Under the pieces are notes generated by a model. It did no database searches and was not told where the DNA came from. It saw only the letters and a list, made by a program, of their open reading frames with translations. Position numbers and translations under genes: made by a program. Shown here piece after piece: positions 9,792 through 16,031 of a stretch of DNA of 45,000 nt (position 1 is the first letter of the stretch; each line of letters opens with the position of its first letter). This DNA comes from Candidatus Pacearchaeota archaeon (lineage in GTDB: Archaea; Nanobdellota; Nanobdellia; Pacearchaeales; GW2011-AR1). The stretch lies in the NCBI GenBank assembly GCA_016867035.1, contig VGKO01000003.1, positions 1 through 45,000 of the forward strand, given 5' to 3'.

Positions 9792-9866
9792 AGCGGGGTA
9801 GAGGAGCCAGGAGTCCTCACAGGGCCCATAACCCTGAGACCGGTGGTTCAAATCCACCTCCCGCTA
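9792..9866 (+). tRNA. tRNA-Met (initiator), anticodon CAT
   Basis: Cloverleaf AGCGGGG/TCCCGCT with A1-U72, three G-C pairs in the anticodon stem (CAGGG/CCCTG), loop CCCATAA, T-loop TTCAAAT; CCA not encoded. Confidence 0.95.
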
Positions 9867-9871
9867 TTTAT

Positions 9872-9954
9872 GCCCGGATCGCATAACGGTATTGCATCGG
9901 ATTGCTAATCCGAGCCCTTCACTGGGCTCCCAGGTTCGACTCCTGGTCCGGGCG
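9872..9954 (+). tRNA. tRNA-Ser, anticodon GCT
   Basis: GCCCGGA/TCCGGGC acceptor stem, TCGGA-TTGCTAA-TCCGA anticodon arm, long variable arm GCCC..GGGC, G73 discriminator. Confidence 0.95.
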
Positions 9955-10014: not shown

Positions 10015-10731
10015 ATGAAAAAAGCAATTGCTAAAATTGCACTTGGTTTGAGTCTTGCGTTAAGTAGTTTAAATAGTTTTGGAGGCTTAGAACAGACCAA
10101 AACAAATTTAGAAGCCAGAGTTGCATCTCTAACTCAAGACTCTTTTGCGATTAAATCAGAAACAACAGGAGCAATAAGTGCTCCTGTAAACTTGGTGCAG
10201 AGCTTTTCATTACAACCCTTGCTTGTTGGAAAGGCTACAATGGCCTTAGCAAACTCTCCTTATTTTTGTTATAGCAATAATCAGGAAATAATCTTTTATA
10301 CTTCACAGGGTTATACTTCAAGATATCAAATAGTCGCCCATAATTCTAAACCCTGTGGAGAGGGATTTAACCAAATAATACTTATAAAAGGAAACAGAGT
10401 ATTTGGAAAATTTGATTCTTGTATGGATATAGATTTCTCAAGCAATCCGGACAATACCACAAGATATAGAAGTAAGATGTTTATTAAATTGGAGAATGGT
10501 TTTCTTGGAGCTATTTTACGAGGCATACTCCGGGTTCCTTTATTGGGGGATAAATTAAAAAAATCTCTAGAAGAGGAACAAGACAAACTTGTTCAAAGCA
10601 CAAATAAAGTCGTGGAAGATGCTTTGAAAAAGCCAAGAGAGACTCTCGAAAAGTTAGAGGGATATACAAATGGACCCACTTATTTTACCCCCAAAGAACT
10701 CGAATCTATAAGAGAAAAGATTGAAAAATAA
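10015..10731 (+). CDS. Secreted hypothetical protein
   Basis: Signal peptide MKKAIAKIALGLSLALSSLNSFG; no motif recognised. Confidence 0.6.
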   Translation: MKKAIAKIALGLSLALSSLNSFGGLEQTKTNLEARVASLTQDSFAIKSETTGAISAPVNLVQSFSLQPLLVGKATMALANSPYFCYSNNQEIIFYTSQGYTSRYQIVAHNSKPCGEGFNQIILIKGNRVFGKFDSCMDIDFSSNPDNTTRYRSKMFIKLENGFLGAILRGILRVPLLGDKLKKSLEEEQDKLVQSTNKVVEDALKKPRETLEKLEGYTNGPTYFTPKELESIREKIEK

Positions 10732-11592: not shown

Positions 11593-12366
11593 TTAGAAAT
11601 TACAAATAACGCCTAAAGAAAAAGAATTAAGAGTGCCTGCTTCGCCTGTATTGCTATTGCCTGAATCAAGGCTATAGGTTTCATAAGAAGCTTCTAAACC
11701 AACATTGGTGCCTAAACTTGAATCATTTTTTGACGTATCAAGCCCTATAAAACCTGCTCTAACTCCAAAACCTTTTAAGTTATATTTTTCTGAACCAACT
11801 TCTTCAAAGCTATCATATCGGTGATGCCCCCAGCTTCTTGTAGCTTTTTGAATTGGAATAAAACCATTTACGAAAAATCGCGTTGTATCTGTTTTAAAAG
11901 ATAATCCTACAAAAGGTTGAACTCCGAAAAAATCTCTCTGCAAATAGTCCATTGCAAAAGAACCAGAGCCCTCTGGTCTTGTATCGCCTTGTTGTTGTCT
12001 ATAATCGGGGATTGTTGGGCCATCCTTTGGTTCAACTAAAACGCTATCAAAATTAAGTTCTAAATCAACTCCTGCTGTTAACTCTAATCTCCCTAAATCT
12101 TTTGCTAATTCAACTCCTGGACGAATAGCAAAGGCTTCCCAGCCATTACCTGCTCTAACCCAAGTACTCCCGCTAATAAAACCGGCATCAGCAGGATGAA
12201 CAGGCACTTCTCGAGATTCATTTAAGCTAAGTTGATTGTATCTCGGAGCATAGGCAATTCTACCCCTTAATGATAAACTTTTAGGTAGAAAAGATTCGGC
12301 TCTTGCAGGTAAACTAGCACAACCAGCAGCTAATGCCAAAGCAGCCATCGCTAATAACTTTTTCAT
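11593..12366 (-). CDS. Secreted protein resembling an 8-stranded outer-membrane beta-barrel
   Basis: Likely start MKKLLAMAALALAAGC at 12366; amphipathic strands and C-terminal SFSLGVICNF ending in Phe. Confidence 0.6.
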   Translation of the reverse strand: MKKLLAMAALALAAGCASLPARAESFLPKSLSLRGRIAYAPRYNQLSLNESREVPVHPADAGFISGSTWVRAGNGWEAFAIRPGVELAKDLGRLELTAGVDLELNFDSVLVEPKDGPTIPDYRQQQGDTRPEGSGSFAMDYLQRDFFGVQPFVGLSFKTDTTRFFVNGFIPIQKATRSWGHHRYDSFEEVGSEKYNLKGFGVRAGFIGLDTSKNDSSLGTNVGLEASYETYSLDSGNSNTGEAGTLNSFSLGVICNF

Positions 12367-12430
12367 AAAAAAACAGGGTAATTCGGGCTTAAAAGCATTA
12401 TCAATGTTGAAAATATATCTTAATCTCTCT

Positions 12431-12961
12431 TTATTTTTTCCTTTTAATAACCCTATACGCAAGAATACCAAATATGATTAAAATTAAAACAAGTGCAATG
12501 AAAACAGCTGTTTTATTCTGGAAGTTTTGAACTATACCTTCGAAAACTAAAATTGCTCCTGTTGCTAAGCCTGTTATCTGAATCAGATTTTCTGAAATGA
12601 ATAGACCAATAAGCAACAAAATAAAACCAAGCCCTGCAAAAATATAAAACTTGTTTTGATTATAGGGTTTTTGTGCTTCTTGATAGGCTTGATTACATTT
12701 CTGATAAAAATCACAATAGCCTTGCGGACAAGGTGCTTTTATGCATTGAACCGGTTGTGGAGTCCAGGTTCCATTATATTGCTCACAAACCCCTTTAGTT
12801 ACATTATCATAAGTTTCTAAAGGAATAGACTTGCTGTAGTTACAATAGTTCTCGTAATTTGGCTCGTTCATAAATAAGCTTACTCCAACATTTACTGTTG
12901 AAACTATTATTATCGTGAGAATTATACTGATTATTATACTCAAAGCTAATTTATTTACCAT
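12431..12961 (-). CDS. Membrane protein with Cys-rich extracellular loop
   Basis: One TM helix, a loop with six Cys (CIKAPCPQGYC), then three TM helices. Confidence 0.7.
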   Translation of the reverse strand: MVNKLALSIIISIILTIIIVSTVNVGVSLFMNEPNYENYCNYSKSIPLETYDNVTKGVCEQYNGTWTPQPVQCIKAPCPQGYCDFYQKCNQAYQEAQKPYNQNKFYIFAGLGFILLLIGLFISENLIQITGLATGAILVFEGIVQNFQNKTAVFIALVLILIIFGILAYRVIKRKK

Positions 12962-13041: not shown

Positions 13042-13130
13042 TTGTAGACAAATTTCTTGTTTTTTGTCTACAAGTTATGTAGGCAAATGTAGACACCAAT
13101 AAAACGAAAGATATATAAATGTAGACACCT
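13042..13130. repeat. Upstream TGTAGACA box cluster, including an 11-bp inverted repeat, overlapping the fic promoter
   Basis: TGTAGACA at 13043, 13088, 13120 (+) and 13065-13072 (-), variant TGTAGGCA at 13078; BRE/TATA CGAAAGATATATAAA at 13105-13119. Confidence 0.85.
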
Positions 13131-13250
13131 ATTATATAGTGGGTGTAAGGACAACATAAGAAGGGAGAGTCTAATTAAACTAACTTAGATGTAGCAACAG
13201 AACATTAATAAAATAAAAAACCCTAAATAAAATAATAACCTAATAAAAAA

Positions 13251-14249
13251 ATGTACTTAGAAAAAAGAAAAACAAAAAAAGGTGAAAAATACTATTTAGC
13301 ACACTCTTTTCGCGAAGGTGGTAAAGTAAACAAGATTAGGGTTTATCTTGGTTCAAATGTTGCTATTCATATTATTCAACAAAGACAGGAGAAAGCTACA
13401 GAGTTATTAAAACAACAACTTAATAGTTTTAAGATAATCAGAAGCCCTATCAATACAAATTTTCTAAGGCGTGAAGAATCACTTATTAAAAAACTGAAAT
13501 TAAAGACTCGATTAAAAGTTATACATCTCTCGGAGAGCGATTGGGAAAGATTTACACAGCTTTTTACTTATAATACTAATGCTATTGAAGGTTCTACTAT
13601 AACCCAAGAAGAAGTTTTTGATATACTCCAAGAAAATAAATGGCCATTTTCAAAACCTAAAGAGGATATTTCAGAAGCTTATGGTGTTGCAGAAGCAATA
13701 AAATATATTAGAAAATCACGAGAACATATTTCGCTTGCTTTAATGCTTAAATTACATGAGATAATCTTTCATAATTCAAAGACTTTTGCAGGTAAGTTTA
13801 GAGAAAAAGGAGTTGAAGTTGGTATTCGCGATGGAACAGGCAACATAGTCCACTTGGGTGCTCCTTCTTCAAGGGTTGCAGGTTTACTTGGTGAATTGGT
13901 TAAATGGTATAATCAAAATAAGAAAAAATATCCCCCTATAGTTCTTGGGGCTGTTATTCATAATCAATTTGAATATATTCACCCCTTTGAAGATGGAAAT
14001 GGGAGAGTCGGAAGGCTTCTGTTAAATAATATATTGATAAAAAATAAGATGCCCCCTGTAAATATATCTATGGAAAGTCGCAAAGAATACTACGAAACCC
14101 TTAGATTATTCCAAAGAACAGGCGATATTAAGCCTACTATTGACTTGATACTTCGAGAGTATCATGAACTGGAGAAAAAATTAAAGAAACAGGAAAAGGA
14201 AAACAAGAAAGGCAAACTAGATAAAAAACCCAGAAAAAAGAAAATTTAA
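13251..14249 (+). CDS. Fic family AMPylase (class II) with N-terminal beta-sheet putative DNA-binding domain
   Basis: HPFEDGNGRVGR catalytic motif; inhibitory TNAIEG motif; N-terminal KYYLAHSFREGGKVNKIRVYLG. Confidence 0.92.
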   Translation: MYLEKRKTKKGEKYYLAHSFREGGKVNKIRVYLGSNVAIHIIQQRQEKATELLKQQLNSFKIIRSPINTNFLRREESLIKKLKLKTRLKVIHLSESDWERFTQLFTYNTNAIEGSTITQEEVFDILQENKWPFSKPKEDISEAYGVAEAIKYIRKSREHISLALMLKLHEIIFHNSKTFAGKFREKGVEVGIRDGTGNIVHLGAPSSRVAGLLGELVKWYNQNKKKYPPIVLGAVIHNQFEYIHPFEDGNGRVGRLLLNNILIKNKMPPVNISMESRKEYYETLRLFQRTGDIKPTIDLILREYHELEKKLKKQEKENKKGKLDKKPRKKKI

Positions 14250-14253
14250 ACAT

Positions 14254-14304
14254 TGTAGACAGATGTAGACACCGAGCCTTTTTTTAATTATTTTGTAGAC
14301 ACCT
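14254..14304 (+). repeat. Downstream TGTAGACA box cluster
   Basis: TGTAGACA at 14254, 14264 and 14294. Confidence 0.85.
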
Positions 14305-14316
14305 AATTTTCGGTTC

Positions 14317-14658
14317 TTACCAGTTTCTTACACTTGTTTCTACTCCGCTAACCCAACCGCGAATTATTACCATTATTTTATCTTTTATTGCATCTTTGTC
14401 TTTTATTGAATATTTATATAAGTAACCTGAAGGCAAATTAAATTGTGATCTTGAGATAATATCTTTTTCAAACAGCTTTTTTACGCTCCTTTGCGTTGTT
14501 GATAAGTCCAATTTTAATTCATGTGCCAATTCCTTGGTTGTTAACCCGCTACCTCTTCTCATTAAAGTAACTAGAATGTTGTAATCTGCCTTACTTAATC
14601 CGAATCCACACCTAATAATTTCTTCTATTTCAAATCTTTTGCATGCGAAATCAATCAT
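14317..14658 (-). CDS. TrmB/MarR-like winged-HTH transcriptional regulator
   Basis: CGFGLSKADYNIL, LTTKELAHELKLDLSTTQRSVKKL, GYLYKY wing. Confidence 0.85.
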   Translation of the reverse strand: MIDFACKRFEIEEIIRCGFGLSKADYNILVTLMRRGSGLTTKELAHELKLDLSTTQRSVKKLFEKDIISRSQFNLPSGYLYKYSIKDKDAIKDKIMVIIRGWVSGVETSVRNW

Positions 14659-14680
14659 TTTTTATTTTTTAAAATTATTT

Positions 14681-15673
14681 TTAGTATTGAGTTAAAGGGG
14701 AGTCTTTATCTCCTTTAGCTTGTACTAGTTCTCTATAAGCTTGACTTGAAGCTATTGCTCCCTGACTAGCTGCAACAACTATTTGCTTGAACTCATTATG
14801 AATAATATCCCCGGCGGCAAAAAATCCTTCTACATTTGTTTTCTGATTTTCATCAGTAAGGATATAGTTATCCTTTGTCTTTACATTTAAAGAAGCGATT
14901 ATTCCCAAATCAGGTAAGCCGCCTGCTTCGATAAAAACACCATTAACATTCAGTATTTTCTTAGAGTTCTTTAATAAAACTCCTTCCACCTTACTTTTAC
15001 CAATAATTTCTGCAAGTTCTTCATTAAAAATAGTCTCTATCTTCTGGTTTTTCTTTATAACATTCAATAATATCTTATCAGGTCTAAAAAACTCTGACTT
15101 TCTATAAATGAGATAAATCTTGCTAGCATGTTCTGCAAGTAAAATTGCAGCAGATATTGCAGAATTGCCTCCGCCTACTACGACTACATTTTTATTCTTA
15201 AAGAAGGGAGCATCACAATTTGCACAGTAACTAACGCCTCTTCCTTTTAGCTCGGATTCACCCTTTATCTCAAGCTTTTTTCTTACTGAACCTGGAGCAA
15301 AAATTACTTTCTTAGCTAAAAAAGATTTAAGATTTGTTTTAATTTCAAAGATTTCTTTTTCTTTAAAAATCCCCTTAATTTCGTCGAATAATACTTCAAC
15401 ACCTATTGACTTTACATGTTCTAAAAACTTTTCAGCCAAATCTTTTCCAGAAATTTCAGAAAATCCTGGATAATTACAAATTTTATGTGCTCCAGCCCAA
15501 TCATCACCGACTTCCCGAGTTATTAATAGAGTTTTTAATCCAAAGCGCTTAGAATAAACTGCAGCACTAACTCCGGCAGGACCCCCGCCAATAATAACTA
15601 TATCATAAAGATTACTTTTACTATTAGATTTATTATGGTTATTGCCAATTTTGTTTTTAGGTAGTTTGGTCAT
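14681..15673 (-). CDS. trxB: Thioredoxin reductase
   Basis: GGGPAG, GVSYCANCD, GGGNSA, TNVEGFFAAGD, KQIVVAASQGAIA. Confidence 0.93.
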   Translation of the reverse strand: MTKLPKNKIGNNHNKSNSKSNLYDIVIIGGGPAGVSAAVYSKRFGLKTLLITREVGDDWAGAHKICNYPGFSEISGKDLAEKFLEHVKSIGVEVLFDEIKGIFKEKEIFEIKTNLKSFLAKKVIFAPGSVRKKLEIKGESELKGRGVSYCANCDAPFFKNKNVVVVGGGNSAISAAILLAEHASKIYLIYRKSEFFRPDKILLNVIKKNQKIETIFNEELAEIIGKSKVEGVLLKNSKKILNVNGVFIEAGGLPDLGIIASLNVKTKDNYILTDENQKTNVEGFFAAGDIIHNEFKQIVVAASQGAIASSQAYRELVQAKGDKDSPLTQY

Positions 15674-15713
15674 TTGTTGTTGGTTTTGATTGGAAATTGC
15701 TTTCCAAAAATTA

Positions 15714-16031
15714 TTAAATTATTGAATCTATCTTTTCTTTTATGGCTTCTTCCGGAGCATAGCCTACTATTCTATCGACTTCTTGTCCTTTTTTTGCTAT
15801 GACTAGTGCAGGAATACCTTGAATATTAAAATCCGAGGCTAATTCTTGATTTTCGTCAACATTTATTTTAACGAATTTTAATTTTCCCTTATATTGGCCG
15901 CTGAGTTTTTCAAATACTGGCGCCATCATTTTACAAGGCATACACCAATCTGCATAAAAATCGATTATTACTGGTGTTTTTGAATCTACAACTTCTTTCT
16001 TAAAATCCCCTGAATTTATGTGTTCTACCAT
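15714..16031 (-). CDS. trxA: Thioredoxin
   Basis: DFYADWCMPCK active site, cis-Pro GIP. Confidence 0.95.
   Translation of the reverse strand: MVEHINSGDFKKEVVDSKTPVIIDFYADWCMPCKMMAPVFEKLSGQYKGKLKFVKINVDENQELASDFNIQGIPALVIAKKGQEVDRIVGYAPEEAIKEKIDSII

Follow-up and report, generated by a model that had tools for sequence, protein, structure and literature searches.

We analyzed positions 1 to 45,000 of contig VGKO01000003.1 from Candidatus Pacearchaeota archaeon (assembly GCA_016867035.1), a 45,000-nt stretch that we refer to as the window, and focused on a gene for a Fic protein that is flanked on both sides by arrays of a 10-bp box. The window is part of contig 3 of a 751-kb (751,174-bp) assembly (32.5% G+C, 94.6% complete). 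Based on comparisons among related genomes, the Fic locus is probably a self-contained, self-regulated unit of a Pacearchaeota-like (DPANN) archaeon, in which a small N-terminal domain of the Fic protein (N-domain) would read the boxes around its own gene. What carries this reading is that the boxes are kept at orthologous Fic genes, that similar pairs bracket the promoters of other genes encoding the N-domain, and that box type follows domain type.

Box arrays around the Fic gene

Exact copies of the box TGTAGACA occur at 13043(+), 13065(-), 13088(+), 13120(+), 14254(+), 14264(+), and 14294(+), and a variant box (TGTAGGCA) at 13078 brings the total to eight, with five upstream and three downstream of the Fic gene, which is the only open reading frame (ORF) between the two arrays. 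The seven exact copies all lie within 13043-14301, compared with 0.78 expected in the window, and seven copies were reached in none of 100 shuffles, so the cluster is not a chance occurrence. Across the genome (751,174 bp), TGTAGACA is found 12 times, as is its reversed control word, and 7 of the 12 copies fall within 1.26 kb at the Fic locus. The 10-mer TGTAGACACC is found four times in the whole genome, each time at this locus. The elements of the locus, including a promoter core that resembles a transcription factor B recognition element (BRE) and TATA box, are as follows:

13042-13052 and 13063-13073: far-upstream inverted box pair, TTGTAGACAAA and TTTGTCTACAA, an 11-bp perfect inverted repeat with its arms 10 nt apart
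13078-13097 (+): tandem boxes one helical turn apart, variant TGTAGGCA plus TGTAGACACC; a distal operator-like site upstream of the BRE/TATA
13106-13119 (+): BRE/TATA-like word GAAAGATATATAAA between boxes; presumed promoter core
13120-13129 (+): promoter-proximal box TGTAGACACC, abutting the TATA-like word and 32 bp downstream of the 13088 box
13130-13250 (+): presumed 5' leader of about 110 nt, between the proximal box and the Fic ATG
13251-14249 (+): Fic (Fido) gene, 332 amino acids (aa), class II layout with TNAIEG N-terminal to HPFEDGNGRVGR
13251-13448 (+): N-domain, aa 1-66, basic, three long antiparallel strands and a long helix; candidate box-binding domain
14254-14273 (+): 3' tandem boxes, TGTAGACA-GA-TGTAGACACC, starting 5 nt past the Fic stop codon
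14279-14285 (+): run of seven T between the 3' boxes, a possible archaeal oligo-T termination signal
14294-14303 (+): third 3' box, TGTAGACACC, 30 bp after the second and ending 13 nt short of the stop codon of the convergent winged helix-turn-helix (wHTH) gene

The Fic core promoter is thus flanked by paired half-sites, with the boxes at 13088 and 13120 on either side of GAAAGATATATAAA, a word that we take to be a BRE/TATA element from the archaeal promoter consensus. The layout is repeated on the two sides of the gene: the 20-mers at 13078 and 14254 are identical at 18 of 20 positions, and TGTAGACACCT comes 32 and 30 bp after the respective second box. The original prediction, made from the sequence of the window, had described eight boxes near the gene ends and none elsewhere in the window, these matched 20-mers, the 11-bp inverted repeat at 13042-13073, and a box abutting the TATA box; our exact and variant matches reproduce each of these features, and the genome-wide count adds that the motif is concentrated at the Fic locus. 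No known RNA family was found in the Fic leader at the Rfam gathering thresholds, at which only two tRNAs matched in the window. A structured leader was also considered and rejected, as the 121-nt leader folds no better than shuffled sequences (z +1.47).

The Fic protein

By its sequence, the ORF at 13251-14249 is a class II-type Fic protein with predicted AMP-transferase activity. Class II Fic proteins are defined by an inhibitory (S/T)xxxE(G/N) motif on the same chain, N-terminal to the active site. The window protein matches Pfam Fic (PF02661) at residues 160-262 (E 2.4e-19) and carries the catalytic motif HPFEDGNGRVGR at aa 244-255 (13980-14015), which fits HPFx[D/E]GN[G/K]R, as well as the inhibitory motif TNAIEG at aa 109-114 (13575-13592) of the same chain, N-terminal to the active site; the intact HPFxDGNGRxxR and TNAIEG motifs claimed by the original prediction are therefore confirmed by the translation and the Pfam match. 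Residues E113, G114, P245, F246, and R255 are invariant among 65 relatives. Profile searches matched the protein to FICD in the PDB (E 4.8e-65 over profile positions 75-305) and to SoFic in PADLOC (E 9.4e-36). In the AlphaFold2 (AF2) model, the Fic core is all-helical with a predicted local confidence (pLDDT) above 90, and the whole protein has a pLDDT of 91. A full-length homodimer prediction gave a score of 0.33 (mark 0.42), which counts neither way.

Conservation of boxes at orthologous Fic loci

Of 61 related genomes searched, 38 encode the protein, and we compared 27 orthologous loci of different genomes whose proteins are 50-80% identical. Counted as TGT[AG]GNCA within 260 nt upstream of the gene or 160 nt past the stop codon, boxes are present upstream at 24 of the 27 loci (60 boxes) and past the stop at 18 of the 27 (35 boxes), with 6 in all within the 27 coding regions. 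Flanking repeats were central to the original prediction, and they are indeed present in most of these Fic homologs. Two loci with no near upstream box (L010 and L012) have boxes farther out, at ~790 nt upstream, where they precede a conserved extra ORF in an operon-like arrangement, and L013 has no box in the 385 nt of contig upstream of the gene. The extra ORF, which lies between the box-bearing promoter and Fic (L010, 903-1490; L012, 900-1499), encodes ~195-199 aa that are 74% identical between the two; this suggests that in these same-genus genomes, the extra ORF and Fic form a two-gene operon.

Three elements are invariant across the 18 ortholog promoters that we aligned: the distal core TGTAG.CA, the word AGAAAG.TTTA.A.A, and the proximal core TGT.G.CA; AGAAAGATTTAAATA, the counterpart of GAAAGATATATAAA, is nearly invariant between the boxes. 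The ATG comes 21-26 nt downstream of where the proximal box begins; based on the archaeal promoter consensus, these orthologs are presumably leaderless. In the orthologs and the window alike, the core promoter has a box on either side, at a spacing of about 30-32 bp (three helical turns), and the box-N2-box layout of the tandem pair in the window also occurs in L014, L016, and L019. Upstream of about -55, the DNA does not align. Because the boxes are kept in orthologs while the surrounding DNA is not conserved, these comparisons indicate that the boxes are under purifying selection.

The arrangement of the outer boxes varies among orthologs. In one layout (six loci), boxes are at -51(+) and -21(+), and an inverted pair lies at the 3' end, with a minus-strand box overlapping the stop codon at -6 and a plus-strand box at +17. 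In a second layout (L018, L069, L071, L072, and L074), an inverted pair at -76(-)/-52(+) is followed by a box at -21(+), and there are no 3' boxes. The ortholog group thus retains an inverted auxiliary pair, now 5' and now 3' of the gene, which is more readily expected of a protein-binding site that acts at a distance than of a terminator or a recombination end. In the window, a direct box triple follows the stop codon, with the 7-T run within it, and the inverted pair is far upstream; T-rich spacers between 3' boxes are also found in L059, L065, and L073. The proximal and 3' box variants tend to change together, with TGTAGTCACA at both ends in L060 and L061, TGTAGGCACC in L073, and TGTAGACACC in the window, L011, L014, and L059; the exceptions are L062, L065, and L070.

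Fold and distribution of the N-domain

The N-domain has a fold that is compatible with DNA binding, judging from structural models. DSSP assignments on two AF2 models place strands at residues 2-8, 11-22, and 25-35 and a helix at 39-64, with pLDDT of 88-96 (88 for the domain alone, with strands at ~96), and the first 35 residues include 10 Lys/Arg and 3 acidic residues. The basic three-strand module of the original prediction is thus borne out by the models. Its proposed likeness to integrase arm-binding domains appears among the nearest folds, at non-significant levels. In a Foldseek search with the N-domain model, no match reached E ≤ 0.001, and three integrase arm-type binding domains (3ju0 and 3rmp among them) ranked 4, 5, and 7 (E ~0.5, prob 0.85). 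In VIA-align comparisons with representative structures, a PH domain was top (Z 6.0), followed by the Plasmodium AP2 domain 6sy0 (Z 5.6, root-mean-square deviation [rmsd] 3.6 over 56 residues) and the HPI integrase arm domain 3jtz (Z 5.5, rmsd 2.1 over 52 residues). For residues 1-66, there was no Pfam family at E ≤ 10; no PDB chain matched over profile positions 1-59, and ESM Atlas returned only unnamed archaeal clusters for the N-domain (0.87-0.89, under the Atlas's own lead threshold).

The original prediction treated the module as a feature of Fic, which does not hold, as the N-domain is widespread on other enzymes. Using a profile from our alignment A2, we found it in 108 of 151 genomes of the order and in 140 of a phylum sample of 251 well-assembled genomes, frequently in multiple copies; two to six are common per 0.5-1.3-Mb genome. 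By sampling size classes of N-domain ORFs, we identified as fusion partners Fic (~300 aa), an MntA-like nucleotidyltransferase (~155 aa), deoxyhypusine synthase (DHS; ~390-400 aa), proline-tRNA ligase (ProRS; ~550 aa), and glycine-tRNA ligase (GlyRS; 544-595 aa). The genome of the window has four N-domain genes, namely the window Fic, a second Fic on contig 15, DHS on contig 6, and GlyRS on contig 8, and DHS and GlyRS are each single-copy in the assembly. At all nine N-domain-MntA loci (L046-L051 and L056-L058, nine genomes), the next ORF is HepT-like (HEPN), ~115 aa, and overlaps by 4 nt; Pfam confirmed this family in four of four tested. These gene pairs are, by sequence, toxin-antitoxin pairs in which the N-domain is on the antitoxin, the classical site of an autoregulatory DNA-binding domain.

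Gene-specific boxes at other N-domain genes

Promoters of N-domain paralogs follow a common pattern of half-site, AGAAAGATTTATAAATA-like word, half-site, ~10 nt, and ATG, and the half-site sequence is specific to the subgroup. Domains of the YTEIK..YYYRV type have inverted TACGTC[CT]ACA..TGTAGACGTA, alike on Fic, MntA nucleotidyltransferase, DHS, and ProRS. RIIKRK..YYYLQHSFRK domains have boxes TACCATTACAA..TTGTAATGGTA, and ..YFYLEHSFRK domains have TACCCCTACAT..ATGTAGAGGTA. IVKKK..AYLG domains, on GlyRS, have GTAGT.CCTAA, mostly direct, and the window's own KYYLAHSFREGG group has direct TGTAGACA(CC). The four N-domain genes of the window's genome carry differing boxes (TGTAGACACC, GGTGGACATAA, TGTGGACGTAC, and TGTAGTACC); these include inverted GTACGTCCACA..TGTGGACGTAC around a TATA-like word at DHS (contig 6, 14559-15764 (-), L079) and inverted GGCACTACA..TGTAGTACC, likewise around a TATA-like word, at GlyRS (contig 8, 5213-7000 (+), L080). 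In a further Fic group, starting with MVYIYKK (L053-L055, L092, and L095), an inverted TACCC.TTACA..TGTAGAGGGTA lies wholly upstream of the TATA word and abuts it.

We searched the 200 nt upstream of each gene for direct or inverted repeat pairs that match at 10 or more of 11 positions and enclose a TATA-like word in a gap of 10-30 nt. Such a pair is present at 37 of 73 N-domain genes, compared with 14 of 649 other genes of the window's genome. Exact 9-mer pairs gave a similar picture (25/73 versus 12/654), with N-domain genes or their neighbour accounting for three of the 12. One control gene without the N-domain (contig 2, 16325-17233 (+)) has an exact 9-bp inverted TTAGATACC..GGTATCTAA at -44/-16 around a TATA-like word.

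Box similarity is correlated with N-domain identity (Mantel r 0.55, reached in 0 of 2000 permutations), and the correlation persists over the 535 pairs that differ in C-terminal enzyme class (Spearman 0.34). Gene-specific repeats that co-vary with the N-domain, which the original prediction put forward as a sign of binding, are thus seen both in this correlation and in the excess of pairs over controls. Altogether, the sequence comparisons indicate that box type goes with N-domain type, not with the enzyme. At the level of single residues, Phe at about residue 27 (..GKKF.K..) is found in all four genes whose TATA-proximal half-site is GTGCCCGTA rather than GTAGACGTA (L028, L057, L058, and L097), and the others have Val or Ile; L052 has the Phe with a standard box. 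Phe27 is therefore a possible specificity determinant of the N-domain for GTGCCCGTA boxes.

Which protein reads the boxes

The N-domain is the sole protein feature that always accompanies the boxes. The binding of the protein to its own boxes, as claimed by the original prediction, gains comparative support from box conservation in orthologs, box pairs at N-domain genes, the tracking of box by domain, and the finding of no other conserved regulator nearby. Based on this, we are fairly inclined to the view that the N-domain binds its own boxes and autoregulates its gene.

Several observations weigh against this view. The DNA that codes for the N-domain is 10-130 nt from the boxes, and co-inheritance of adjacent DNA could yield much of the correlation between box and domain, in which, moreover, the sequences are related. 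The pair is not universal, with no pair in 6 of 73 genes and a match below 10/11 in 36 of 73. Unlike half-sites (TACGTCCACA with GTGCCCGTA) are combined in L057, L058, and L097, and one box is common to two genes of a single genome (L089 and L091 in G142). The window gene is itself atypical in having direct, not inverted, boxes and a leader of ~110 nt from the proximal box to the ATG. The 3' boxes are missing in 9 of 27 orthologs and have little counterpart in other N-domain groups, where post-stop boxes are found at 2 of 33 genes versus 18 of 27 in the window's ortholog group. Finally, the N-domain has no Pfam family or solved relative, and its fold matches are weak, with Foldseek E ~0.5 and with Z scores of 5.5-5.6 that are in the range of common arrangements and below that of the PH domain (Z 6.0).

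The boxes could instead be operators for another protein acting in trans, be it a general transcription factor or an unfused relative of the N-domain, with the fused N-domain serving oligomerization, partner binding, or RNA binding. That the N-domain binds DNA is, after all, something we infer, and the fold search also lists sheet-plus-helix domains that do not bind DNA, the PH domain among them. Candidates for a stand-alone form include the nearest ESM Atlas clusters, which are unnamed archaeal proteins of 114-145 aa, and a 73-aa open frame with the N-domain in one related genome (G041). However, the window's genome has at least four box types, each at an N-domain gene, and we found no stand-alone N-domain ORF in it, so that every box type would require its own factor in a 0.75-Mb genome. 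Box type also tracks the fused domain over different enzymes. We therefore consider a separate regulator unlikely.

The nearest candidate for such a regulator is the wHTH gene that converges on Fic (14317-14658 (-)), which encodes a MarR/TrmB-like winged helix according to Pfam and is not conserved with the boxes. It belongs to a wHTH-thioredoxin reductase-thioredoxin unit (14317-16031 (-)) whose order is kept in the same-genus genomes G002 and G004. We rejected it as the box binder: it goes with the thioredoxin and thioredoxin reductase genes, in G002 and G004 there is no box within those loci, and among the first 11 orthologous loci examined for neighbours (L009-L019), the other 10 do not have it alongside. 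The winged helix probably regulates the thioredoxin unit rather than Fic.

Insertion scars and mobility of Fic loci

The original prediction offered the repeats, alternatively, as recombination ends of a mobile one-gene cassette. In such a scheme, the arrays would be recombination or arm-type sites at the ends of the cassette, where the N-domain would assemble a host recombinase. Gene neighbourhoods do vary among orthologs, and some Fic loci have scars that point to insertion. Locus-specific direct repeats (score ≥18, 21-72 bp) flank 7 of 52 evaluable family Fic genes (L018, L023, L029, L038, L062, L069, and L074), compared with 5 of 350 control genes and none of 18 non-Fic N-domain genes. Often, such a repeat is a copy of a tRNA-like end or of the upstream gene's 3' end, and in L062 the right repeat begins directly after the last 3' box. 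The Fic paralog on contig 15 (5200-6096 (-), L084) has a tyrosine-recombinase gene (Pfam Phage_integrase, E 8e-38) on one side and PCNA on the other. One copy of a 13-bp repeat, AAAGTCCGCTTGA, falls within the final codons of the recombinase gene and the other directly follows the Fic stop codon, which can be read as an insertion at that gene. Arm-type integrase domains are, as noted, among the nearest folds of the N-domain, at non-significant scores.

The position of the boxes argues against this role. The scars are external to the boxes and vary by locus, and at the window locus there is no flanking repeat besides the boxes (the best upstream/downstream repeat is the box array itself, score 14). 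The boxes center on the TATA word, the end boxes are direct rather than inverted, and 3' boxes are missing in 9 of 27 orthologs. The unit has no recombinase or transposase, with Fic as the sole ORF between the arrays, and the same domain and equivalent boxes are found at the single-copy GlyRS and DHS genes, which have no scars. The same kind of scar also occurs at an unrelated gene of the window's genome for a hydrolase-like protein of 205 aa with no N-domain (contig 41, 2867-3485 (-), L085), where a 91-bp flanking direct repeat duplicates the 3' end of the upstream GatB-domain gene (gatB); this indicates that insertion with target duplication is general in this genome and is not a property of the boxes. 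In G002 and G004, the thioredoxin-thioredoxin reductase-wHTH unit is located elsewhere, without the window's upstream genes beside it, and these regions are rearranged such that no clean empty site can be defined. Altogether, recombination ends were not borne out, and we regard them as quite improbable. The sequences do suggest that some members of the Fic family are, at least sometimes, compact inserted cassettes with their own promoter and operator, and the boxes may have a helper role like that of arm-type sites.

We give least weight to the boxes being promoter or terminator elements for the basal machinery (an extended BRE or initiator) that are kept by descent with no dedicated binder, a very improbable explanation for which the boxes abutting the BRE/TATA and the T run and the TGTAG core common to most groups can be cited, and against which stand the variable box part that differs among paralogs of one genome, the precise inverted or direct pairs ~30 bp apart (such pairs are at only 14 of 649 other genes), and the copy past the stop codon, which would be needless.

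Proposed mechanism of autoregulation by the N-domain

If the N-domain reads the boxes, its ~35-residue three-stranded sheet and the following helix would form a sequence-specific DNA-binding domain that recognizes the 10-bp TGTAGACA(CC), one domain per box. The boxes, spaced one and three helical turns apart, would flank the BRE/TATA of Fic's own promoter, and the occupied sites would abut the BRE and cover the stretch from TATA to start. The bound protein, which the Fic body probably joins into an oligomer, could then clamp the promoter core and hinder the TATA-binding protein, transcription factor B, or RNA polymerase, and the outcome would be negative autoregulation of a potentially toxic AMP-transferase. 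We infer DNA binding, repression rather than activation, the oligomeric state, looping, and the catalytic target. The Fic core resembles FICD and the defence-type SoFic and keeps the inhibitory glutamate, and for such autoregulation, tight self-limitation of a latent toxin would be a sensible purpose.

Inverted or 3' boxes may be an auxiliary operator that acts cooperatively with the promoter boxes through looping, and looping or silencing through the 3' boxes, as in the original prediction, is plausible. AMPylation could conceivably be coupled to DNA binding, as the original prediction also proposed. Alternatively, the 3' array could be a roadblock at the terminator/T run that faces the convergent thioredoxin operon. 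Contacts between domain and boxes at both ends of Fic cassettes might serve looping or cassette mobilization. Class II aminoacyl-tRNA synthetases, DHS, Fic, and MNT are known as oligomers, and these partner enzymes could supply the dimerization that paired half-sites require.

More broadly, and more tentatively, the N-domain and its TATA-bracketing boxes may be a portable self-operator module that moves as one piece, made up of promoter, operator, and the part of the gene, at its 5' end, that codes for the DNA-binding domain. Such a module could have been grafted onto toxins (Fic and MntA/HepT) and essential enzymes (GlyRS, ProRS, and DHS) across the Nanoarchaeota-type DPANN phylum, with specificities that diverged so that each gene regulates itself; as an account of the whole phylum, we hold this to be possible and somewhat less secure than the reading of the Fic locus. 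If it is correct, reduced, regulator-poor genomes would steer part of their translation machinery through DNA-binding domains borne by the enzymes.

Setting of the locus

Archaeal RpoH/RpoB genes are near the Fic locus, and the closest proteins are labelled Pacearchaeota or Nanoarchaeota in the source databases; more than 1100 relatives were found. Two adjacent tRNA genes (9792-9866 and 9872-9954 (+); Rfam, gathering thresholds) lie upstream of the Fic locus. Near them, the ORFs at 10015-10731 and 11593-12471 have signal-peptide-like N-termini and no Pfam family at E ≤ 0.001.

Significance and comparison with known systems

Over half of the genomes sampled from an uncultivated archaeal phylum encode this one unnamed domain family, which is carried by at least five unrelated classes of enzyme and has putative operators that co-vary with it. 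To our knowledge, almost nothing is known about regulation in DPANN archaea. If binding is confirmed, the family would offer a route to predict regulation in these organisms, a simple regulatory code relating domain residue to box base (with Phe27 and GTGCCCGTA as a lead), and a compact orthogonal set of repressors and operators for archaeal promoters. The comparisons also show Fic genes in these genomes to be compact, self-contained units, sometimes inserted, that resemble toxin-antitoxin or defence modules. In the literature that we searched, whose coverage leaves out most subscription journals, we found no prior description of an N-terminal sheet domain on archaeal Fic, aminoacyl-tRNA synthetases, DHS, or MntA.

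The core of the archaeal Fic is like those of FICD/HYPE (PDB 4u04 and 6i7g) and SoFic (3eqx; a single-gene defence model in PADLOC), with the motifs intact. The N-termini differ: FICD has a TPR/transmembrane N-terminus, and neither FICD nor SoFic has such a sheet. SoFic 3eqx was deposited under the title 'FIC domain containing transcriptional regulator'. With the integrase arm-type domains (3jtz, 3ju0, and 3rmp) and the AP2 domain (6sy0), the N-domain shares small size, basic character, and a predicted three-stranded antiparallel sheet followed by a helix, and its candidate sites, ~10 bp and in arrays, are like arm-type sites. The similarity is below significance, there is no sequence family match, and the partner is an enzyme rather than a recombinase.

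The closest precedent is CccR, a Fic protein of Yersinia pseudotuberculosis. CccR uses a C-terminal HTH to bind the palindrome AGATAATCAT-N26-ATGATAATCT near the -35/-10 elements of its own promoter, which it represses (PMC9755527), and Fic-HTH fusions had earlier been suggested as possible autoregulators (PMC2686095). The two systems share a single polypeptide that combines a class II-type Fic (S/TxxxEG) with a DNA-binding domain (here a candidate one), 10-bp half-sites about three helical turns apart (N26 in CccR) around the protein's own core promoter, and negative feedback on a toxic enzyme, which we propose likewise for the archaeal Fic. They differ in that CccR is bacterial, uses a C-terminal HTH at -35/-10, and has demonstrated binding, whereas the archaeal Fic has an N-terminal sheet as candidate domain at a BRE/TATA and is predicted to bind. 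The window locus further differs from CccR in its direct boxes and its second array past the stop codon.

Beyond Fic proteins that carry an HTH, SoFic has a C-terminal winged helix, and trigger enzymes such as BirA, PutA, and NadR, as well as antitoxins, carry their own DNA-binding domain and repress their own promoter. The MntA-HepT pairs with the N-domain follow the antitoxin pattern. Unlike BirA, PutA, and NadR, the N-domain is one small domain family, with diverging operators, on many unrelated enzymes within one archaeal phylum. A self-repressing fusion of enzyme and DNA-binding domain is thus already known from individual cases, with CccR as the Fic precedent, and what appears unexpected from the sequences is the breadth of this unnamed sheet domain and the divergence of its putative operators.

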